DNA of 64,000 nucleotides from Escherichia coli 042 (lineage in GTDB: Bacteria; Pseudomonadota; Gammaproteobacteria; Enterobacterales; Enterobacteriaceae). The stretch is taken from the NCBI RefSeq assembly GCF_000027125.1, contig NC_017626.1; one strand, written 5' to 3'. This document shows positions 789 through 50,432 of this stretch, one piece after another. A model generated the notes under the pieces. That model did no database searches. It was given only the letters and a program-made list of their open reading frames with translations, and was not told the DNA's origin. The stretch's first letter is position 1. Every line of letters begins with the position of its first letter. Both the position numbers and the translations under genes were made by a program.

Positions 789-3700
789 TTAAGCCAGATG
801 CAGTGCTTCAAGACGACGAAGATCAAAGTCGTTTAATTCGTCGGTATAACTTTCGGTAATCGGTGCTGGCCAGTTGTTTGTCTCCAGGGCTTCGTTTATC
901 TGGCGTAGCGTCCGGCGATATTCCTGTCGACCAAGTTCCAGGAGTTCCTGCGAGGCTTCCACGACAGCCACCCAGTGATAGCCAGCATCTTTGTTGACGA
1001 AGATCCAGAAAAATTTTTCCAGGTTTGCCACATCGCAATACATTGCGGCGCTGAGGTGATAATCACGCTCAATAATTTCACGGTGCAGGCGATCTTTAAG
1101 TCGTTCCTGCCGCACATAACCGAGGCTGACTGACTTCACGTCGGCGCAAATGCTTTCGTATGGCAGCCGGATTTCGATATCAGGACGGACCCTGATTTCC
1201 AGCCCGGTTTCTTCATCAAACCCGAAATAGCTGATTTCAGATTTGCGATCCGGGTGGTTGAGTAGCCTTGCCGCATCAGTATTGTTTTGCAGTGCCGCGT
1301 GAATATTTTTTGCCTGTTCATACATATCCGGACTGATAAACGTTTTCCCGGCGTTTTCTTCTTGCTGGCGTTTTTGCCAGTCCTCCAGTGTCACCAGTTC
1401 CGGGCGAATTTTCCGTGCGATTTCGGTTAATTGCTCTTTCGTGCCACTGATGTTGTAAGGCAAAGATTTAGCACGTTCTTTTTTTGCCAGTTCTGGGTCT
1501 ACAGTTTCAATTTGATCCAGAAGTTGCTCCCGTGCTCCACTGGTTTTCAACAGAGGAGGGAGGCTTGCGTTGTATTCTTTAATACAGGCTTTCATTGCTG
1601 ATGCTGTGTGTTTTTCCCCCTCAGGGATACGCCGAAATTCCACCGGAAGCGAACCGTAAAGGATGCCTGTTTCTTCGGCCCCAGCACTTACAGACAGTGG
1701 CTGTATAAGAGTGCTGTTGTAGCTTTCGATCCACTCTTTCATCTGCTCTGGTGTCATCAGTGCTGGCAGACTGGCATTGTGTTTTTTAATGATGGCGATC
1801 AGTTCGTTAGAAGTAGTAACCACATATTCAGGAACCGGTACCGGAATGGCATATTCATCAGCGAATTTATCCGTTTCCAGAACATAGCTGTGAATGATCC
1901 TCCCACGCAGCAGTGCATCACTTTCCTCATTCGGAATAGTTCCGGCAATGTGCCGCCCGTGGTAATACATCAGGCTGATACGGGCATCCTTCAGCATCGT
2001 GCTGCTTATTCCGTTGGCGGAGTGATAAACCTCGTTCGGGAGGTTTTCATAGCGGCCTGGCTCGAAATATGACGGCCACATGATTTCAGTTGCTACAGGA
2101 GCTGACGCTTCACCAGTTTGATCACTGCAATCACGATGCGGATCGCTGCCAGCATTCTCATTGTGCGGATGTTCAGCGCCTTCCATTTCCACCGGATCTT
2201 TTTCCTTAGCTTCAACCTGATTCTCTTCATCGAATGTTTCCTGGTATGTTGCGTCGCCCATCACCGCGCCACAGTCAGGGCAGTTACTGCCGCCGGTCTG
2301 ACCGCAGGCGGCGCAGACTTTTTCCGGTTCCTGTTGCGCTTCTGGTTCATTTTGTCGCGAATTTTGGCCGTTTTGTTCCGATTTTCGGTCGTTCTGTTCC
2401 GTTTTTGGCTGATGCTGGTACACAGAATCGCGGGTCTGGATCCCCTTAACCCATTTCGGATCATTCGGGTCGCTAATCCCTTCAACAAATTCTCCGCGAT
2501 AGGCAGCCAGTAATTTGTCTGCATCAACAGAATTTACCTGTGACTGAGCATCCAGCGGCTGCGTGTCCTGATGATGTTCAGTTGCATCCGGTTCCACTGT
2601 TTCAGCCGTTGCCTGTTCATCTGCCATTGCGCCAGATGGTTGCGGTTTTTCTTCATCATTCTGTTTTCCCTCCTCTGTTACACGCTGCGGCATCGGGGCA
2701 GAGGAGCGACCGCAGGCAATATCCACGATTTCCGGATCAGGGTTGGCATGATCGGTTTCAGTCAGTACTTTGTTCAGATATTCTGTGACGTGCGCGGGGA
2801 TGACCTCGATCCCAATTGGTGCTTCTTTCACGGACGCAACCACGATGGCGCGAGAATAATCCAGCCCGCCAGGCATGGTGATGAATTTGTCGCGGAAAAC
2901 AGAAAAGGGCGGTTTATTTTCAGCGATAATTTCCTCAATGCGTTTAGCGTGTGCCGGATGAAGGTTATAGATGTCCACGTCCATTGAACGGGCCAGTACG
3001 CCAGTGGCTACGTCGCGCGCCAGTGACGTAAGATCGTGGACGAAACCTTCGCCGCGATCGGTGAGGTTCCCGCCGCCAGCATTAGCACCGGAAGCCGTGC
3101 GAGTGATGCGTGAAACACGATTACCCTTCATCCACTCTTTTGTCAGCAGTCCTCGATCGGTGTAGTCAGCGTTCAGGTATACTTCGAAAAAAGCAGTTAA
3201 CAGTCCCAAGTCTGAATTACCAGGATTAGGGAAAACTTTGTCAGTGTCACGAACCAGTTTGTGGAGATCGCGAATTTCCAGCGGGTCGAGCAGGCTGGTT
3301 TTGTGGGAAACAGCCAGGGCAGTAACAGCCGGTAGTTCTTCAGCCCGTGCAATGTGTAATGCCTGGAGTTCGCCGCGTGAAACGTGCGTTACCGGTTTTT
3401 CGCTGCCGTGTTGAGCAAGCCAACGAATGGGCAGTTCCTGGCCAGAAATTGGGAGTAGCATATTCTCCTCAATCTCAGTCATGTCTTCGCCGTTGACGTT
3501 GGTATTGCCTTGATAGTGAGCGTTGTCTGGTGCTGCTCCCGGTTTTAGTTCCCATGTCATGGAGTCTTTGCTGAGTTGATAGCGTTCACTCCAGGTAAAA
3601 TCGATCTCACCTTCAGCGGGCAGGTCATTAACGACAGGAAAATTCGTGGCAACAGCTTTAAAATAGCTGCTCAGTTTTTTACCTGACTTAACGATCTGGT

Positions 3701-3812
3701 AGTCCAGAGTGGCACAGGTCGATTCAAAATCGTCACTTGCCCACAGGACGACGTCAGGTTCACCGGATGATTTTTTCGCTTTCCGTAACAGGAAGAGTGG
3801 TTTTGTGCTCAT
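789..3812 (-). CDS. recE: Exonuclease VIII (RecE-like), 1007 aa
   Basis: Long ORF; C-terminal region has RecE-type nuclease-domain character (e.g. [10 protein letters not shown]) as I recall it; synteny with racC/ydaE/kilR. Longer than K-12 RecE (866 aa). Confidence 0.8.
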
Positions 3813-3913
3813 TGTTTTTTAACCTCAACTCAGATTAAAATTCGTTTTGTTCAGTGAATGATCTTGCCGGATACACACTGTTCATAGCCTGCGCCATACG
3901 CAGGCTATTTCTT

Positions 3914-4189
3914 TCAGATTTCACCTTTTAATTTCATTGCAATCAGAGTTGCCAGAAATCCGGCTTTTTTTTCTGCGGGCAGATTCTTTCCGATATGCAC
4001 TAGGCTCATTTTTTTGACACCTTCGTGAAGTGTTTTAACGTTGCCTGATGGACCGTCGATATCAACTACAGTGAATGGGGTTTCTTTATTTTCTGTTTTA
4101 ATCACGTAGCCAATACGCTTTCCTTCCAGATTAACTTCGTGAACAATGTCATCAGTAGTTACAACAGTGGCTTCATAACTGGTAATCAT
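3914..4189 (-). CDS. racC: Rac prophage protein RacC (91 aa from internal Met MITSYEA)
   Basis: ORF translation matches RacC as recalled; position between recE and ydaE. Confidence 0.8.
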   Translation of the reverse strand: MITSYEATVVTTDDIVHEVNLEGKRIGYVIKTENKETPFTVVDIDGPSGNVKTLHEGVKKMSLVHIGKNLPAEKKAGFLATLIAMKLKGEI

Positions 4190-4263
4190 GTTTTTCTTCT
4201 TAATTAAGGTTGAGCGAATCCCTGCCATTGCTGGCATAAATTCAGTTTCGCATAGTCAGTTAA

Positions 4264-4434
4264 TTAAAGTTCGTGTGCCATCTGGTCTTTTTCGGCACAT
4301 ATTTCGCTACAATATTTTTTCATTTCCGTCGTTGGGATAACTCCACGCATGAAATGAAGTGGTCTTTTAATGCTTTTGCTTTCTTTAACTTCTTTATCGC
4401 AAAGGTGGTAAGCACATTTTATTTTCTTAGTCAT
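4264..4434 (-). CDS. ydaE: Small zinc-binding protein YdaE (56 aa)
   Basis: Not in ORF track (<60 aa); hand translation [16 protein letters not shown]...YCSEICAEKDQMAHEL, GGAG RBS, 56 aa as in K-12 ydaE. Confidence 0.75.
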   Translation of the reverse strand: MTKKIKCAYHLCDKEVKESKSIKRPLHFMRGVIPTTEMKKYCSEICAEKDQMAHEL

Positions 4435-4655
4435 CACCATGACTCCGCCTTTACAGGTAAACCATCACGACCGAGGAAGACTTTAATCATGCAGTCAGTA
4501 ATGCATGTTTTTGTGGTCAGGTTACGAATATAAAGCTTTCGCTTTTTAATATTGTTTGCCGAGGCAATATATGTCCGGCCGTTATGAAGAACATAATCAC
4601 CAGGAGTCACACACTGACGAGGTATTTCATCAGTTCCGAAGTGATGAGCAATCAT
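4434..4655 (-). CDS. kilR: Cell-division inhibitor KilR (73 aa)
   Basis: ORF translation [21 protein letters not shown]...; Rac synteny. Confidence 0.8.
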
Positions 4656-5085
4656 AATTATCTCCATTTTCACAAATGAACTTTGTTGATGCGGTGCCTG
4701 GTGCCTCCAGGTGACGTTAACCAGTTAACAATTAACGCCGGATAATCCACCCATAACACTGATGCTTTTAACTGTTCCGCGTGCGCTTAGCCGCATTCAC
4801 CGCATCACAAAATTCACTTTAAAAAGGGCGGACATCAGCCGAACTTCAAGAAAAAACTGATGCCGCCAAGACTACACACAGCAATGTCGTTATTTACAAC
4901 CGGAGGCGCACTCCCACCATTTAAATTTAACAGACAAGACCGACTCTTTATGGATATCGGAAATGCGCCTTCGTGTTGCGCCCAGTTTTATTTCACCACC
5001 TCCGGGCTTCGGTGGTCTCGGCTATACCCCTACAGCGAGAGCTTGTGTTAACATTTCAATACCCTTACAGTTGAGAGTTATTGAT

Positions 5086-5574
5086 ATGTTGGATGTATTT
5101 ACTCCATTGTTGAAACTTTTTGCTAACGAGCCACTCGAAAGACTTATGTATACGATTATCATTTTTGGTCTCACTCTCTGGCTGATACCGAAAGAGTTTA
5201 CTGTCGCATTCAATGCTTATACTGAAATACCTTGGCTCTTTCAGATTATCGTTTTTGCCTTTTCTTTCGTGGTCGCCATTTCCTTCTCAAGATTGCGAGC
5301 ACATATTCAAAAGCATTTTTCATTACTACCAGAGCAACGAGTATTGCTTCGTTTATCTGAGAAAGAAATCGCTGTATTTAAAGATTTCCTTAAAACAGGA
5401 AATCTTATTATCACTTCTCCTTGCCGTAACCCGGTTATGAAAAAATTAGAACGGAAGGGCATCATTCAACATCAGAGTGATAGCGCAAACTGTTCTTATT
5501 ATCTCGTCACCGAAAAATACTCCCATTTTATGAAGTTATTCTGGAACAGCAGGAGTAGACGTTTTAATCGTTAG
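5086..5574 (+). CDS. sieB: Superinfection exclusion protein B (162 aa)
   Basis: Translation MLDVFTPLLKLFANEPLE... with hydrophobic N-terminal segments; divergent from kilR. Confidence 0.85.
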   Translation: MLDVFTPLLKLFANEPLERLMYTIIIFGLTLWLIPKEFTVAFNAYTEIPWLFQIIVFAFSFVVAISFSRLRAHIQKHFSLLPEQRVLLRLSEKEIAVFKDFLKTGNLIITSPCRNPVMKKLERKGIIQHQSDSANCSYYLVTEKYSHFMKLFWNSRSRRFNR

Positions 5575-5726
5575 CTTACTGTGTGCTTCTCCAACCATCG
5601 GCGCGCACCAGTTTCGGTTTTAAATGTTTTGCTTTTTGTATACGTCATCGCGGTGAACGTACCGTCCTGGTTGGGAAACACGCCACACACTATGGATTCG
5701 TTGTTGCCGAGGTCGATTTTTTGCAT
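5571..5726 (-). CDS. ydaF: Rac prophage small protein YdaF (51 aa)
   Basis: Hand translation MQKIDLGNNESIVCGVFPNQDG...; GAGGG RBS; size matches ydaF. Confidence 0.7.
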   Translation of the reverse strand: MQKIDLGNNESIVCGVFPNQDGTFTAMTYTKSKTFKTETGARRWLEKHTVS

Positions 5727-5737
5727 TTTGGGAACCC

Positions 5738-5872
5738 TCACATCTTGTTGTTACGGATAGAGGCTTCTGCCTGCCAGAGATCCCAGTCGTTGCTGCGTAG
5801 AGCCTGTACAGCCTGGCTGTAAGTGATGCCGCAACAATCCATCAAATACTGAACTACTTCGTAATGCACCAT
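5738..5872 (-). CDS. ydaG: Rac prophage small protein YdaG (44 aa)
   Basis: Hand translation MVHYEVVQYLMDCCGITYSQAVQALRSNDWDLWQAEASIRNNKM; size and position match ydaG. Confidence 0.65.
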   Translation of the reverse strand: MVHYEVVQYLMDCCGITYSQAVQALRSNDWDLWQAEASIRNNKM

Positions 5873-6043
5873 CTTATCTCTCCCCTTAACGCCGGGTGGC
5901 GGAACTAACTGCTGCACTGCAAAATTTGAATCCCGCCGTCATGTTCATACGCCTCGGGCTGGCTACTTAACCCCTGACCACTGCCTGGTAACTCGAAGTA
6001 TTGCCCTGCGTTCTGTGGGGCGGGGTGGGTTGGTAGGTATATG

Positions 6044-6085
6044 ATGTACTTTGTGTTCATTGTTGTAAAGTACTTTAAGTACATT
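6044..6085. promoter_or_regulatory. Candidate left operator: inverted ATGTACT/AGTACAT repeats
   Basis: atgtact at 6044-6050 and agtacat at 6078-6084, plus aagtac direct repeat; same heptamer recurs twice between racR and ydaS. Confidence 0.35.
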
Positions 6086-6159
6086 TTGTGTGTAAAAAAA
6101 TGAGATGGGATAAAGTGAAGCACAAACCCGGAGGGGGACGCTACCGGATTTATGCTGGT

Positions 6160-6579
6160 TTAAGAGGCTTTTTGTTTTTTCTTTCGTGCTAACTCTTCGT
6201 AAATTGCATTGTACTTCTGTTTTTTCTCCTCAAGAGTTTTTAAAAGTTCATCTGTCTCACTGTCAGGGAGCTCGTCCAGAAGGTCAATGATGATTTTTTG
6301 TCTTGGATTTAACTCCTGATAGAAACGTACCTGTCCACTTTCTTCTGTATCCTCTCCCAAAAGATAGGTTGGTGTTGTTCCAATGAGTGTTGCTAATTCC
6401 CTTAATTTCTCTCGGCGAGGAATTGTTTCGCCATTAAACCATTTGCTAACCGCTTTTGGTGTTAATTTCATTCGACGGGCAATTTCTGCCTGCCTTCCAT
6501 GTTGTTCATAACCAGCGTTTTCACAGGCTAGCGCAAGCCTACTGGCGAACTCTTTACGCGCTTTATCTTCATGAACCAT
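6160..6579 (-). CDS. racR: Prophage repressor, HTH XRE family (RacR-like), 139 aa
   Basis: HTH motif (QAEIARRMKLTPKAVSKW); divergent from ydaS/ydaT as in Rac. Confidence 0.75.
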   Translation of the reverse strand: MVHEDKARKEFASRLALACENAGYEQHGRQAEIARRMKLTPKAVSKWFNGETIPRREKLRELATLIGTTPTYLLGEDTEESGQVRFYQELNPRQKIIIDLLDELPDSETDELLKTLEEKKQKYNAIYEELARKKKQKAS

Positions 6580-6603
6580 AAGTTCAATGATATTCGCTCT
6601 TGA

Positions 6604-6634
6604 ATGTACTGTCAGTTCTGTTATAGCATGTACT
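6604..6634. promoter_or_regulatory. Candidate right operator/divergent promoter region (ATGTACT x2)
   Basis: atgtact at 6604-6610 and 6628-6634 in the 80-bp racR-ydaS intergenic region. Confidence 0.35.
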
Positions 6635-6658
6635 CAAAGTTCACATTGTGAGGGTGAT

Positions 6659-6913
6659 ATGAACCAGAAAACACTTGAAGATGTAATCAAAACTGTTCGC
6701 GTTTCTGTTGTGGCCGACGTTTGTGGTGTCAGCCAAAGAGCAATCTACAAATGGATGGATAACGGAAAATTGCCTCGCACAGAATATACCGGCGAAACAA
6801 ATTACGCTGAAAAAATCGCTCATGCATCAAACGGATTATTTTCTGCCGATGCAATTTTAACTATTGGCAGAAATAAAACTACTACGAAAAAGCTGATGGG
6901 AGTTGATTCATGA
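6659..6913 (+). CDS. ydaS: Cro-like HTH protein YdaS
   Basis: Translation MNQKTLEDVIKTVRVSVVADVCGVSQRAIYKW; position right of repressor. Start uncertain. Confidence 0.7.
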   Translation: MNQKTLEDVIKTVRVSVVADVCGVSQRAIYKWMDNGKLPRTEYTGETNYAEKIAHASNGLFSADAILTIGRNKTTTKKLMGVDS

Positions 6914-7332
6914 AAATCAAGCATGAGCACATCGAATCAGTGTTGTTAGCCCTGGCTGCTGAAAAAGGGCAGGCATGGGTAGCCAATGCCATTACTGAAG
7001 AATATCTGCGCCAGGGGGGCGGCGAATTGCCTCTGGTTCCAGGCAAGGACTGGAACAATCAGCAGAATATCTATCACCGTTGGTTGAAAGGTGAAACGAA
7101 AACGCAAAGAGAAAAAATTCAGAAGCTGATCCCAGCAATTCTGGCAATCCTTCCGCGCGAGCTGCGTCACCGACTCTGCATCTTCGATACCTTGGAACGC
7201 CGTGCATTACTGGCGGCGCAGGAAGCGTTAAGTACGGCAATTGATGCGCATGATGATGCTGTCCAGGCCGTTTACCGGAAAGCGCATTTCAGCGGTGGCG
7301 GGTCTTCCGACGATTCTGTCATTGTTCATTAA
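6910..7332 (+). CDS. ydaT: YdaT (140 aa), toxic Rac protein repressed by RacR
   Basis: 140-aa ORF overlapping ydaS stop (ATGA); matches ydaT size and synteny. Confidence 0.8.
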   Translation: MKIKHEHIESVLLALAAEKGQAWVANAITEEYLRQGGGELPLVPGKDWNNQQNIYHRWLKGETKTQREKIQKLIPAILAILPRELRHRLCIFDTLERRALLAAQEALSTAIDAHDDAVQAVYRKAHFSGGGSSDDSVIVH

Positions 7333-7344
7333 GCAAAAGTTTTC

Positions 7345-8202
7345 ATGCTGTTTGTGCTTATTCTAAGCAACCGGACAGCATCATACGGGGCAATTATGGC
7401 CGCATTACCATACATGCAACTGTACATAGCTGATTACTTGGCTGACACCATGCATTTGTCAGCAGAGGAGCACGGTGCGTATTTGTTGCTGATGTTCAAT
7501 TACTGGCAAACAGGAAAGCCAATACCCAAAAACAGGCTGGCAAAAATTGCCCGTCTGACTAACGAGCGATGGGCTGATGTTGAACCATCCTTGCGGGAGT
7601 TTTTTTGCGATAACGGCGAGGAATGGGTGCATCTTCGGATTGAGGAAGATCTGGCATCAGTCAGGGAAAAATTAACCAAAAAATCAGCCGCAGGAAAAGC
7701 ATCTGTTCAGGCCAGAAGAAGCAGAAAGGAAGCAGATGTTCAAACAAAACAAGAGAGAAATTTAACAGGTGTTCAAACAGATGTTGAAGTGGTGTTTGAA
7801 CATGATGCCAACACAAAGGCAACTAATAAAGATACAGATAAAGATCTAAAAACAGATCCCCCCCTAAATCCCCCCCGGGGGAATCGAGGTGTCAAAAAGT
7901 TTGACCCTCTGGATATTGCTTTGCCGAACTGGATTTCTGTCTCGCTTTGGCGTGAGTGGGTTGAATTTCGCCAGGCATTGCGTAAACCGATTCGAACGGA
8001 GCAGGGCGCTAACGGGGCGATACGGGAGCTGGAAAAATTCCGCCAGCAGGGTTTTTCACCTGAGCAGGTGATTCGACACAGCATCGCCAATGAATACCAA
8101 GGCTTGTTCGCGCCAAAAGGTGTTCTACCTGAGACGTTACTCCGACAGGTTAACACCGTCTCGTTACCGGATAGTGCGATCCCGCCAGGCTTCAGGGGGT
8201 AA
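7345..8202 (+). CDS. ydaU: Replication initiation protein O-like (YdaU), 285 aa
   Basis: 285-aa ORF, same length as K-12 YdaU; precedes DnaC-like gene. Confidence 0.75.
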   Translation: MLFVLILSNRTASYGAIMAALPYMQLYIADYLADTMHLSAEEHGAYLLLMFNYWQTGKPIPKNRLAKIARLTNERWADVEPSLREFFCDNGEEWVHLRIEEDLASVREKLTKKSAAGKASVQARRSRKEADVQTKQERNLTGVQTDVEVVFEHDANTKATNKDTDKDLKTDPPLNPPRGNRGVKKFDPLDIALPNWISVSLWREWVEFRQALRKPIRTEQGANGAIRELEKFRQQGFSPEQVIRHSIANEYQGLFAPKGVLPETLLRQVNTVSLPDSAIPPGFRG

Positions 8203-8208
8203 CTGACC

Positions 8209-8955
8209 ATGAAAAATATTGCGGCAGGCGGCATTCTTGAACGTATCCGCAGACTGGCCCCGCCACATGTAACCGCCCCATTCAAAACGGTAGCGGAGTG
8301 GCGCGAGTGGCAACTTTCCGAAGGCCAGAAACGTTGTGAGGAGATCAACCGTCAGAATCGTCAGTTGCGGGTGGAAAAAATTCTGAATCGCTCTGGCATC
8401 CAGCCATTGCACCGCAAATGCTCGTTTGCGAATTACCAGGTGCAGAACGACGGTCAGCGATACGCGTTGAACCAGGCGAAATCTATCGCTGATGAACTGA
8501 TGACCGGGTGTACAAATTTTGCGTTCAGCGGAAAACCTGGTACCGGAAAAAACCATCTGGCGGCGGCTATCGGGAATCGCCTGCTGAAAGATGGCCAGAC
8601 AGTGATTGTGGTTACCGTGGCTGATGTCATGAGTGCTCTACACGCCAGCTATGACGACGGGCAATCAGGCGAAAAATTTTTGCGGGAACTGTGCCAAGTG
8701 GATCTGCTGGTTCTTGATGAAATTGGCATTCAGCGCGAGACAAAAAACGAGCAGGTGGTGCTGCACCAGATTGTTGATCGCCGGACAGCGTCGATGCGCA
8801 GCGTGGGGATGCTGACAAACCTGAACTATGAGGCCATGAAAACATTGCTCGGCGAGCGGATTATGGATCGCATGACCATGAACGGCGGGCGATGGGTGAA
8901 TTTTAACTGGGAGAGCTGGCGTCCGAATGTCGTCCAGCCAGGAATTGCGAAGTGA
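8209..8955 (+). CDS. ydaV: DnaC-like helicase loader (YdaV), 248 aa
   Basis: Walker [14 protein letters not shown], Walker B LLVLDEIG. Confidence 0.85.
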
Positions 8956-10334: not shown

Positions 10335-11021
10335 ATGACCCCAATAAAAATATTTATGACTATTGCTGATTTCAAACGGCCTAAATTGGAGCTCCCAAAC
10401 GGGGCAAACAAACTACTACTGCACTCTTGCTGTGCTCCATGTTCCGGTGAAGTGATGGAGGCGCTTCAGGCCTCGGGAATCGACTATACCATCTTTTTCT
10501 ACAACCCGAACATTCATCCTCAGAAAGAGTATTTAATTCGTAAGGATGAGAATATTCGCTTTGCTGAACAACACGGCGTGCCATTTATTGATGCTGATTA
10601 CGACACAGACAACTGGTTTGAACGTGCCAAAGGAATGGAATGGGAGCCCGAGAGGGGGATCCGTTGTACCATGTGTTTTGACATGCGTTTTGAGCGGACA
10701 GCGCTGTACGCTGCTGAAAATGGTTTCAGTGTGATCAGCAGTTCACTGGGCATTTCACGCTGGAAAAATATGCAGCAGGTTAACGACTGTGGGCGGCGAG
10801 CCGTCGCGCATTATCCGGGCATGGTGTACTGGGATTATAACTGGCGCAAGCAGGGCGGCTCGTCCCGCATGATTGAAATCAGCAAGCGCGAAAAATTCTA
10901 TCAGCAGGAATATTGTGGCTGTGTGTATTCTCTGCGCGATACCAATCTACACCGCAAATCTCAGGGACGCCCTCTTATCAAAATTGGTCAACTCCACTAC
11001 GGTAAAGAAGAGAAGGAGTGA
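10335..11021 (+). CDS. DUF208/QueH-like Fe-S protein (epoxyqueuosine reductase family)
   Basis: N-terminal [21 protein letters not shown] and C-terminal YCGCVYSL motifs typical of QueH. Start codon uncertain (10335 or 10356). Confidence 0.65.
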
Positions 11022-11201
11022 TTTTATGGAGCACCTTTCTTATTGATTTCATATTGGCGAGGTAGCGGGAGTTAAGTAAAATTGCTGCGGGTGCTTGAGG
11101 CTATCTGCCTCAGGCATGAACACCAAAAGGCAGATAGAGAAAAGCCCCAGTTAACATTACGCGTCCTGCAAGACGCTTAACATTAATCTGAGGCTCAATC
11201 T

Positions 11202-11414
11202 ATGCTGAACACATGTAGGTTAGCCTCTTACGTGCCGAAAGGCAAGGAGAAGCAGGCTATGAAGCAGCAAAAGGCGATGTTAATCGCCCTGATCGTCATC
11301 TGTTTAACCGTCATAGTGACGGCACTGGTAACGAGGAAAGACCTCTGCGAGGTACGAATCCGAACCGGGCAGACGGAGGTCGCTGTCTTCACAGCTTACG
11401 AACCTGAGGAGTAA
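11202..11414 (+). CDS. mok: mok-like overlapping reading frame (translational coupling to hok)
   Basis: 70-aa frame that contains the hok ORF in-frame, as in hok/mok loci. Confidence 0.5.
   Translation: MLNTCRLASYVPKGKEKQAMKQQKAMLIALIVICLTVIVTALVTRKDLCEVRIRTGQTEVAVFTAYEPEE
11259..11414 (+). CDS. hok: Hok/Gef family membrane toxin (51 aa)
   Basis: MKQQKAMLIALIVICLTVIVTALVTRKDLCEVRIRTGQTEVAVFTAYEPEE: Hok-family TM helix plus conserved C..E..R. Confidence 0.85.
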   Translation: MKQQKAMLIALIVICLTVIVTALVTRKDLCEVRIRTGQTEVAVFTAYEPEE

Positions 11415-13665: not shown

Positions 13666-13741
<76 letters not shown>

Positions 13742-13744
13742 TAT

Positions 13745-13819
<75 letters not shown>

Positions 13820-18293: not shown

Positions 18294-19218
18294 TGATTTT
18301 TGCGCCTTTATTCTGACTCACGGGCGACCGGACAAAGTTCTGACTTACCGGACGTTGCGTCGTGCTGGCTATACCGGGAAAATTTTTATCGTTGTTGATG
18401 ATGAAGATAAGACACGGCATCAGTACATGGCTGAATTTGGTGAACAGGTGCTGGTGTTTTCCAAAGCCGATATCGCCAGTCGTTTTGACGAAGCCGATAA
18501 TTTCGGTGACCGCCGCTCAATTTTTTACGCCCGTAATGCCTGTTTCGACCTGGCAAAACTGGTCGGGTGTAAATACTTCATTCAGCTCGATGATGATTAT
18601 CACGAGTTCCAGTTTCGGGTGGATCGCAACTATGACCAGGCCTATTTTCCGATAAGGAAACTGGATGCGATCCTTTCTGAAATGCTGGCGTACTACGAAT
18701 CAATACCTGCTCTTTCCATCGCTATGTCGCAGGGCGGGGATTTTCTTGGTGACAATGGCGGCCATGCTTCGTGGGTGAAACGCAAGGCAATGAACAGCTT
18801 TATCTGTTCGGTTGATCGACCGTTCTCATTCATGGGGCGCATTAACGAGGATGTGAATACGTACACGAATCTCGGTCGCTGTGGTGAATTGTTTATGACG
18901 ATCGGTGCTGTCCAGTTAGGGCAGAAACAGACGCAGAAAAACAGCGGCGGAATGACCGAGCTGTATCTGGATTCCGGAACCTACGTTAAAAGTTTTTACT
19001 CCGTCATGTATGCGCCGTCGTGCGTAAAAATCTCACTGATGGGTGCCAGCCATAAACGCATTCACCATCAGGTCACCTGGAACAACGCTGCAGTAAAAAT
19101 CCTTCACGAAAAATACAGGAAGAAGACACCCTGCATATCAATAGGGGTGACAAATGATTCCATATTCGAAAGTCGAGTCTCTGGCAGCGTGCCGGATGAC
19201 TGCACAACAAATCGCTGA
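18286..19218 (+). CDS. Hypothetical protein, 310 aa (possible nucleotide-sugar transferase-like fold)
   Basis: Strong RBS GAGGAGGAGG; motifs FILTHGRP, IVVDDED, FIQLDDDY suggest DXD-type transferase but unverified. Confidence 0.5.
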   Translation: MRDDFCAFILTHGRPDKVLTYRTLRRAGYTGKIFIVVDDEDKTRHQYMAEFGEQVLVFSKADIASRFDEADNFGDRRSIFYARNACFDLAKLVGCKYFIQLDDDYHEFQFRVDRNYDQAYFPIRKLDAILSEMLAYYESIPALSIAMSQGGDFLGDNGGHASWVKRKAMNSFICSVDRPFSFMGRINEDVNTYTNLGRCGELFMTIGAVQLGQKQTQKNSGGMTELYLDSGTYVKSFYSVMYAPSCVKISLMGASHKRIHHQVTWNNAAVKILHEKYRKKTPCISIGVTNDSIFESRVSGSVPDDCTTNR

Positions 19219-50067: not shown

Positions 50068-50294
50068 TGAATAAATCCTTTAGTTATTTTATTTGCCTTT
50101 TATCCCCATTTCGGGGAGTGAAAACATCCTAAAGGAGATGTTCAGTTAGCCGATAAATATCATTTGTTACGCCTTAAGTAAAACCTTAATCAAATAATTC
50201 TTCTGAAATGATAATAAGTCTGGTGAATGTATTGGAGATAATACATACAAAATAAAAATTATACTTTTAATTTGCTATACGTTATTCTGCGCGG

Positions 50295-50403
50295 GTTATA
50301 TGCCTTTATTGTCACAGATTTTATTTTCTGTTGGGCCATTGCATTGCCACTGATTTTCCAACATATAAAAAGACAAGCCCGAACAGTCGTTCGGGCTTTT
50401 TTT
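50295..50403 (+). ncRNA. micC: MicC small regulatory RNA
   Basis: Sequence GTTATATGCCTTTATTGTCACAG... ending in gcccgaac...gttcgggc + T-run; between ompN and ydbK. Confidence 0.85.
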
Positions 50404-50432
50404 TAGAATTGGATAATTCTTATCCAGAGCAT

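Follow-up and report, generated by a model that had tools for sequence, protein, structure and literature searches.

The heptamer ATGTACT is repeated on both sides of a repressor gene in a Rac-type prophage of Escherichia coli 042, which raises the question of whether these repeats are protein-binding sites and, if so, which repressor recognizes them. The initial annotation of this locus named the gene racR, likened the two heptamer clusters to lambda OL and OR and suggested that they were RacR operators controlling kilR and the toxic genes ydaS and ydaT. This question was addressed by computational analysis of the window, i.e., the whole stretch of 64,000 nucleotides in which the locus lies.

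Copies of ATGTACT were confirmed at 6044-6050 (plus strand), 6078-6084 (minus strand), 6604-6610 (plus strand) and 6628-6634 (plus strand). Just two further copies, at 18422 and 33091, were found in the 64 kb, and both of these lack a dyad partner. While the total number of heptamers in the window is not enriched (6 observed versus 5.13 expected, with at least 6 in 35 of 100 shuffles), the occurrence of four copies within 591 bp, where 0.047 are expected, has a Poisson probability (at least 4 copies) of about 2e-7. Repeat finding and pattern searches showed the heptamer to be the left portion of a longer motif, ATGTACT-N3-AGTTC, and when both strands are read the complete unit is a 17-bp dyad, ATGWACY-N3-RGTWCAT, of which the heptamer is the better half. 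The inverted pair at 6044-6084 that had been described initially is present; its two members belong to adjacent operators (6044-6060 and 6068-6084), each of which contributes its outer half-site. The direct copies at 6604 and 6628, also present, form the left halves of a further two operators (6604-6620 and 6628-6644). When all 17-mers of the window were scored against the dyad, five sites took the top five places with 12 to 13 of 14 positions matching, compared to 11 for the best site elsewhere; the dyad consensus was refined on these same five sites and the ranking is partly circular, which is offset by the independent annotation of phage HK022 and by conservation across genera (see below). 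The fifth site, ATGAACCATAAGTTCAA at 6571-6587, lies across the repressor start codon and had not been part of the initial annotation. The ATGTACT heptamers are, by this analysis, real half-sites of five predicted 17-bp operators that flank the prophage repressor gene:

6044-6060: OL1, ATGTACTTTGTGTTCAT, matching the dyad at 13 of 14 positions; aligns with the annotated HK022 oL site 2201-2215; overlaps the -10 and spacer of the predicted leftward promoter
6068-6084: OL2, AAGTACTTTAAGTACAT, 13 of 14 positions; 24 bp from OL1; aligns with the HK022 oL site 2225-2239; overlaps the -35 of the predicted leftward promoter
6571-6587: OR3, ATGAACCATAAGTTCAA, over the repressor start codon (CAT at 6577-6579); 15-nt core identical to the HK022 oR site 3000-3014; abuts the -10 of the predicted repressor promoter
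6604-6620: OR2, ATGTACTGTCAGTTCTG, 12 of 14 positions; aligns with the HK022 oR site 3033-3047; placed between the -35 and -10 of the predicted rightward promoter
6628-6644: OR1, ATGTACTCAAAGTTCAC, 13 of 14 positions; aligns with the HK022 oR site 3057-3071; extends over the predicted rightward transcription start

The lambda-like layout around the repressor gene proposed in the initial annotation is therefore borne out, with two sites to the left and three to the right.

The prophage in the window has a Rac backbone, located at ttcA and including ydaT and its YdaT box, and flanks that are 95.5% and 97.8% identical to K-12 Rac. Blastn against K-12 BW25113 placed these matches at 3410-6035 (95.5%) and 6904-8344 (97.8%) and returned nothing between them. 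Since K-12 homology ends at 6035 and resumes at 6904, an 868-bp cassette at 6036-6903 has, judging from this alignment, replaced racR-ydaS in a Rac-type prophage. HK022 DNA matches the cassette at 6040-6100 (80%) and 6419-6829 (70%), and the exchange junctions coincide with the predicted start of PL on the left and the YdaT box on the right. The cassette and the genes in and next to it are as follows:

6036-6903: swapped immunity cassette (OL/PL, repressor, OR and cro-like gene), 868 bp, no homology to K-12 Rac
6160-6579, minus strand: repressor of 139 aa, with an HK022-CI-like HTH domain (residues 1-75), a disordered linker and a DicA-like two-helix tail
6659-6913, plus strand: Cro-like gene, 84 aa, 62% identical to HK022 Cro (E = 1e-34)
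6903-6920: YdaT (CII-like) box, TTGATTCATGAAAATCAA, a perfect TTGATT-N6-AATCAA located across the start codon of ydaT, where the right-hand mosaic junction falls
6910-7332, plus strand: ydaT, a CII-like activator (PHROG 163, CII-like transcriptional activator, E = 3e-37), in the segment 97.8% identical to K-12

The K-12 counterpart of the YdaT box, ATGATTCATGAAAATCAA, has been footprinted (PMC11879457). A megablast search of 5900-6700 against 5,426 complete E. coli genomes found the whole stretch in 1,046 of them (approximately 19%), and in K-12 strains the match was limited to the first 136 bases. The cassette was found in Rac-type backbones in the window, E. coli O157:H7 H2495, strain 3-72 and strain 2009C-3133, as well as in Qin-type backbones, at the dicA-dicC position, in Escherichia phage Tritos and E. 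coli Ceylon31. No published description of the cassette in Rac-type prophages was found among open-access papers on HK022/Rac immunity and on RacR/ydaS operators.

The identification of the repressor gene as racR did not hold, as the protein has only an HTH-only local match of 33 residues to K-12 RacR (12/33, or 36%, identical) and there is no DNA homology to K-12 in 6036-6903. The assignment of the rightward gene to ydaS likewise failed, this gene being an HK022 Cro homolog, although ydaT is present as had been proposed, in the 97.8% identical backbone that begins at 6904. Comparison of the Cro-like protein with K-12 YdaS gave 6/18 identical residues and nothing significant, and no alignment was obtained with DicC. 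The operators of K-12 RacR have been footprinted and have the consensus WTAGGC-N3-GCCTAW, with three sites (O1-O3) of which O3 lies over the racR ATG (PMC9638921). This motif is absent from 5900-7000 with up to 3 mismatches allowed, whereas the K-12 locus has five copies with at most 2 mismatches, including three dyads in the racR-ydaS gap (L001 3287, 3312 and 3338). In K-12, a further pair of RacR-type dyads was observed at the OL position, just inside the left junction (L001 2646 and 2671); these overlap a strong leftward promoter, TTGACA-17-TATAGT, with its start point at the junction.

The window shows the K-12 layout at both OR and OL, with a different repressor and a different motif, and the dicA region of Qin has its own dyad on each side of dicA. 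Because both operator clusters change when the repressor allele changes (K-12, window and Qin), each motif would represent the cognate operator of its own repressor, and this co-variation is the strongest in-silico argument for such an assignment.

The closest match to the cassette is the immunity region of HK022, for which record X16093 annotates two oL sites, three oR sites, pL and pR. The annotated site sequences (TGTACTTAAAGTTCA, AGTACCAATAGTACA, TGAACCATAAGTTCA, TGTACTATCAGTTCC and TGAACCATAAGTTCA), labelled in the record as 'potential' binding sites, equal the window motif, and the operator core TGWAC-N5-GTWCA is common to both. The OR and OL regions of HK022 and the window align essentially gap-free; the OL pair is 24 bp apart over pL in each (starts at 2201/2225 in HK022 and 6044/6068 in the window), and the OR sites, between the divergent repressor and cro genes, are spaced by 33 and 24 bp (starts at 3000/3033/3057 and 6571/6604/6628), the third of them overlapping the ATG of the repressor. 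By operator motif, layout and predicted regulators, the cassette is an HK022-type immunity module. The two regions differ in that HK022 CI (235 aa as translated) has an Ala-Gly site and the S24 serine motif, while the window repressor has 139 aa and a DicA-like helical tail; HK022 has cII where the window has ydaT; and HK022 carries nun, while the leftward operon in the window is of the Rac type (ydaG, ydaF, kilR, recET). HK022 also has additional candidate sites, an OL3 at 2277 (53 bp from OL2) and a distal operator at 3323 (approximately 300 bp downstream of OR and downstream of cro), for which no counterpart with at least 11/14 matches was found in 6085-6160 or from OR1 to 7400, except for a weak 11/14 site at 6916 inside ydaT. 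Cooperative binding of HK022 CI to neighbouring operators, both within OR and within OL, has been reported (Carlson & Little 1993, as cited in PMC8053113), and this protein was shown to form loops between OL and OR in vivo (PMC8053113).

Three predicted promoters accompany the operators:

6041-6069, minus strand: PL-like promoter, TTTACA-17-CATCAT (-35 at 6069-6064, -10 at 6046-6041), found by promoter scan
6587-6615, minus strand: PRM-like promoter, CTGACA-17-TATCAT (-10 TATCAT at 6592-6587), a putative, unmapped promoter found by promoter scan (10/12)
6600-6627, plus strand: PR-like promoter (-35 TTGAAT at 6600-6605, TG at 6619-6620, -10 TATAGC at 6622-6627), proposed from its positional homology to HK022 pR

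The -35 and -10 of the PL-like promoter are identical in sequence to the annotated HK022 pL hexamers (TTTACA/CATCAT) and likewise correspond in position, and the predicted start, at about 6034, coincides with the mosaic junction. A terminator scan predicted no minus-strand terminator from PL down to 3800, i.e., between PL and racC. On the right, pR stands at the equal position in HK022, where the annotated hexamers (-35 TTGACT, -10 CATAAT) align with TTGAAT and TATAGC in the window. The predicted -10 TATAGC is weak, and the promoter was missed by the consensus scan because this -10 lacks the final T. The -10 of the PRM-like promoter ends 7 nt before the repressor ATG, and a TAnnAT hexamer is retained at this position in all relatives aligned; no Shine-Dalgarno sequence was found upstream of the repressor ATG. 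This short distance and the missing Shine-Dalgarno sequence suggest that the repressor mRNA is probably leaderless. Moreover, OR2 overlaps the predicted -35 of the repressor promoter, with its center at about -32 from the predicted PRM start, a position that does not suit activation of PRM from OR2 in the manner of lambda. An Rfam scan gave no match in the immunity region. Taken together, the sites are operator-like, as had been proposed, and overlap a predicted leftward promoter that faces ydaG-ydaF-kilR and the predicted divergent repressor and cro promoters; to call them RacR operators is correct as to the kind of site, but not as to name or specificity.

Further analysis included the alignment of eleven immunity regions, i.e., those of the window, E. 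coli O157:H7 H2495, E. coli Ceylon31, Tritos, HK022, Klebsiella phages 2 and 2b, Citrobacter phage Omnitron, Salmonella phages S9-5 and SI8, and phi24B. The initial annotation had made its reading depend on conservation of the heptamers in related prophages, and all three OR sites were found in 11/11 regions, at offsets of -8, +24/25 and +48/49 relative to the A of the repressor start codon. Nine of the eleven share the offsets -8, +25 and +49, and the two 933W-type phages have +24 and +48. Across the non-coding segment 6580-6658, conservation was 0.90 in the cores (TGWAC/GTWCA), 0.71 in the central trinucleotides and 0.68 for bases that belong to none of the sites (Mann-Whitney p = 5e-5). In OR3, repressor codons 1-3 place an additional constraint on the left half. 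In Ceylon31, whose immunity region has 90% DNA identity, and in Tritos, substitutions in the sites were confined to degenerate dyad positions (1, 7 or the central N3). OL1 is conserved in O157:H7 H2495, Ceylon31 and Tritos, and two OL sites spaced 24 bp apart are likewise present in HK022, S9-5, Omnitron, Klebsiella phage 2 and each of the four E. coli copies. On the protein side, the helix TPKA(V/I)SKWFNGE pairs with ATGWACY half-sites, and the 933W-type helix, SSKGVSKWFNAE, pairs with a GWAC core as well, with different outer bases.

The 139-aa repressor is 47% identical to HK022 CI over residues 4-102 (E = 6e-32), and its recognition helix, TPKAVSKWFNGE, is identical to that of HK022, TPKAISKWFNGE, at 11 of 12 positions, with one conservative V/I change. 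Among phage genomes searched with tblastn, the annotated CI of Tritos is 100% identical to this repressor, and the CI proteins of 933W and phi24B are approximately 51% identical to its first 73 residues. Pfam identified HTH_3 alone in the repressor, with no S24 domain, and residues 86-139 contain neither an Ala-Gly (AG) cleavage site nor a G[DN]SM motif; both the Ala-Gly site and the GDSM motif are present in the long relatives from HK022, Klebsiella, Citrobacter and S9-5. BLASTP against K-12 DicA aligned 112 residues, the tail among them, at 29% identity (E = 5e-15), and the C-terminal 50 residues align with DicA, including an L-P-(D/E)-S-E motif. The best NCBIfam model was DicA (NF007257), which covers residues 29-137 at 56.8 bits, below the curated cut-off of 101, and PHROG 5736 matches residues 27-139. 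The repressor is, in its predicted architecture, a relative of DicA and not a DicA equivalog. An AF2 model (mean pLDDT of 78) has a five-helix N-terminal domain, a disordered linker at 77-88 and helices at 92-103 and 106-138. Among solved structures, a sequence search with the repressor matched only the N-terminal domain of P22 C2 (E = 0.006), and a Foldseek search with the model returned generic XRE HTH domains. Full-length Foldseek matches to SinR/SinI, to 9iaq of the arbitrium system and to 5d4z, a Salmonella temperate-phage repressor, were rejected as too weak (E of about 0.02, rmsd of 5-10 A).

The sites and the distances between them are direct observations, as are their conservation and homology to HK022 and the way in which they co-vary with the repressor allele. 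Taking these into consideration, we put at roughly 85% the probability that the heptamers are half-sites of five operators belonging to an HK022-type cassette that replaced racR-ydaS, and that these operators are bound by the 139-aa repressor. It would be very improbable for the heptamers to be chance repeats, or repeated promoter elements in AT-rich intergenic DNA, that have no role in protein binding. The heptamer count over the window does equal chance, and the overlap of the sites with -35 and -10 hexamers means that part of their conservation could stem from promoters; however, the clustering (P = 2e-7) speaks against chance, the dyad symmetry reaches beyond the hexamers, position and core are conserved over four genera while the spacers vary, and a change of repressor allele brings a different motif at both OL and OR. 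As for the assignment of the sites to a K-12-type RacR controlling kilR and the toxin genes ydaS/ydaT, the chromosomal position and flanking genes are those of K-12 racR, and the layout matches the published one for RacR, with three intergenic sites of which the third lies over the ATG (PMC9638921). With only 12/33 residues shared with RacR, a gap in K-12 homology at 6036-6903, no RacR motif and a rightward gene that is not ydaS, this assignment is left with next to no probability, and at the level of sequence it is already refuted.

A different possibility is that the operators are real and serve, mainly or exclusively, the Cro homolog or YdaT, the short repressor having its targets elsewhere or being a decayed remnant. 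In the racR-ydaS gap of K-12, YdaT has three binding sites as well (PMC11879457), lambdoid Cro proteins share the operators of the repressor, and the repressor here is without a canonical C-terminal domain, all of which would be consistent with this arrangement. It is nevertheless unlikely, given that the repressor gene has an intact ORF encoding a protein 100% identical to the CI of an active phage, and that transcription of this CI in lysogens is 24-fold above background (PMC9928086). The recognition helix of the repressor also matches that of HK022 CI. In addition, the dyad bears no relation to the YdaT consensus TTGATT-N6-AATCAA, which occurs separately at 6903-6920, and the short form of the repressor is a recurrent architecture (DicA; PHROG 5736).

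If the five sites are operators of the 139-aa repressor, this protein would bind them as a dimer. Dimers at OL1 and OL2 would block the leftward promoter that reads into ydaG-ydaF-kilR-recET, and dimers at OR1 and OR2 would do the same to the rightward promoter, which serves cro-ydaT and the replication genes. OR3, which is located over the repressor's own start codon, could provide negative autoregulation. The Cro homolog would most likely work on these same sites in the lytic direction, and YdaT would act at the TTGATT-N6-AATCAA box at 6903-6920. Within this scheme we infer not only that binding takes place but also the order in which the sites are filled, cooperativity, looping between OL and OR and the points at which the promoters start. 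In K-12, expression of ydaG, ydaF, kilR, ydaE and racC has been reported to rise 40- to 70-fold upon antagonism of RacR (PMC11014345).

The DicA-like tail of the repressor replaces the RecA-cleavable domain, making induction by SOS autocleavage unlikely. DicA has no cleavage site, and in Qin the antirepressor Rem lifts its repression (bioRxiv 10.1101/2023.04.14.536235). A tblastn search of the window with K-12 Rem gave no match, though hokD, which lies beside Rem, is 100% identical; there is no antirepressor annotation in near-identical genomes. No LexA box (CTGT-N8-ACAG) was found anywhere in the 64-kb window, which gives no sign of an SOS-controlled antirepressor. Tritos forms plaques and expresses this CI in lysogens, as mentioned above, but did not belong to the prophages that ciprofloxacin or trimethoprim induced (PMC9928086).

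The domain-swapped repressor on an unchanged operator geometry is the sole mildly unusual point of this locus. We tentatively consider, as a possibility that is rather doubtful at present, that a natural chimera of a DNA-binding domain with HK022 specificity and a DicA-type non-cleavable tail operates on the exact 24- and 33-bp spacings of HK022. If the tail does support pairwise cooperativity and OL-OR looping like those of the unrelated S24-type C-terminal domain, operator geometry would be set by the DNA-binding and not the oligomerization module, and in about one-fifth of E. coli strains an SOS-insensitive repressor would lock kilR, recET and ydaT off. Such a repressor would also confer immunity to phages of HK022 immunity, with release only by an antirepressor or another signal. 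The cassette itself predicts cross-immunity with HK022-type phages. These findings also correct an annotation trap, as genes at the racR/ydaS position of Rac-type prophages are not always racR and ydaS; consequently, results on operators, toxicity and cross-talk of K-12 RacR are not transferable to approximately 19% of complete E. coli genomes, O157:H7 strains included. Five predicted operators and three predicted promoters are now available for studies on the control of kilR, recET or ydaT.

Overall, the locus is an ordinary and well-understood kind of phage switch, arising from a textbook exchange of lambdoid immunity modules, and it shares features with several known systems. The K-12 Rac switch RacR/YdaS/YdaT (PMC9638921, PMC11879457, PMC5700373) has the same prophage backbone and integration site, with 95-98% identical flanks, and resembles the window in its three N3-centered dyads between divergent genes, the third over the repressor ATG, in a dyad pair at the OL position over a leftward promoter, and in ydaT with its YdaT box. 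By contrast, the K-12 operator WTAGGC-N3-GCCTAW is unrelated to the window motif, RacR has 158 aa, and YdaS is unrelated to the window Cro. The DicA/DicC system of Qin (PMC3441716; bioRxiv 10.1101/2023.04.14.536235) is similar in having a repressor of about 135 aa with an XRE-type HTH and an L-P-(D/E)-S-E tail but no cleavage site; it differs in the DicA operator, Oc (TTGTTAGTCATAACTAACAA, PMC3441716), in DicC, which is unrelated to the window Cro, and in Rem, which has no homolog in the window. Lambda CI/Cro also has 17-bp dyads about 24 bp apart over divergent PR and PRM promoters, a distant PL beyond the repressor gene and a leaderless repressor mRNA (cI), the last of these being probable for the window. 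The sequences differ from those of lambda, however, and the window has two OL sites and not three, an OR2 too near PRM for activation of the lambda type and no RecA-cleavable domain. Finally, PaaR2/YdaS/YdaT of CP-933P (PMC8630535, PMC9986795) is a lambdoid cassette with a CII-like YdaT that recognizes TTGATT-N6-AATCAA and with OL and OR flanking the repressor operon, and the paaR2 repressor mRNA is leaderless (PMC8630535). Unlike the sites in the window, the PaaR2 operators are 18-bp palindromes with the half-site GTTTAGTAA, and paaR2 is co-transcribed with a toxin-antitoxin pair.

In the Rac prophage of K-12 BW25113 (locus L001), two dyads of the RacR type (WTAGGC-N3-GCCTAW) lie downstream of racR:

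L001 2646-2660, RacR-type dyad ATAGGTAATGCCTAA
L001 2671-2685, RacR-type dyad ATAGGCTATGCCTAA

Within L001 2643-2685, both dyads overlap a strong leftward promoter, TTGACA-17-TATAGT, and because of this overlap the region looks like an OL/PL for RacR. The RacR literature examined places operators in the racR-ydaS gap only and terms the regulon, including ydaFG, uncharacterised. Antagonism of RacR in K-12 has been reported to increase ydaG, ydaF and kilR expression 40- to 70-fold (PMC11014345), an increase for which RacR binding at this pair of dyads would account.

In the window, racR-ydaS is replaced by the HK022-type immunity cassette (6036-6903). On the left, the mosaic junction (6035/6036) falls where transcription from the leftward promoter is predicted to start (+1). 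The cassette supplies this promoter and the operators, and the DNA under their control is entirely Rac backbone. On the right, the junction at which K-12 Rac homology restarts is the first base of a box for the CII-like YdaT protein (consensus TTGATT-N6-AATCAA):

6903-6920, YdaT box TTGATTCATGAAAATCAA, perfect match, across the ydaT start codon

By comparison, K-12 Rac reads ATGATT... at the position of this perfect box.

The same cassette, with its operators, occupies the dicA-dicC position of Qin-type backbones in phage Tritos (L004 4001-6200), which carries the Qin-type markers DicF and dicB, and in E. coli Ceylon31 (L010 1171-2500), which carries ydfA and ydfB. Therefore, the immunity cassette is mobile between lambdoid prophages of the Rac and Qin types. 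In Qin of K-12 (L013), dicA is flanked on both sides by DicA-type dyads, e.g., TGTTAGTTATGACTAACA and TTAGCCATGACTAACA (L013 8623-8705 and 9114-9279), and Qin represents a third immunity allele, in which OL and OR have a motif of their own.

Other features of the window were as follows:

about 10356-11021, QueH-like epoxyqueuosine reductase gene, placed from the annotation of L014, a 99.2% identical genome (offset about 101 bases)
11089-11411, sok antisense RNA overlapping hokD (Rfam RF01794, 119.6 bits)
13666-13819, tRNA-Thr (TGT) and tRNA-Gly (TCC) genes, prophage late region
50292-50412, MicC sRNA (Rfam RF00121, 127.5 bits), host chromosome

Since MicC belongs to the host chromosome, the right-hand limit of the prophage must lie short of about 50 kb. 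In contrast to Rac of K-12, the prophage retains terminase, portal and head genes, as seen in loci L012 and L014. The hokD product is 100% identical to K-12 HokD, and the hok/sok module is a Qin-like element within a Rac-type prophage, without an adjacent rem, the Qin antirepressor gene. The QueH-like gene is a moron, with the replication genes on one side and hokD on the other; strain 3-72 has two anti-phage genes, iteA and iteS, in the equivalent stretch instead. The tRNA pair precedes the lysis genes essD and rrrD.
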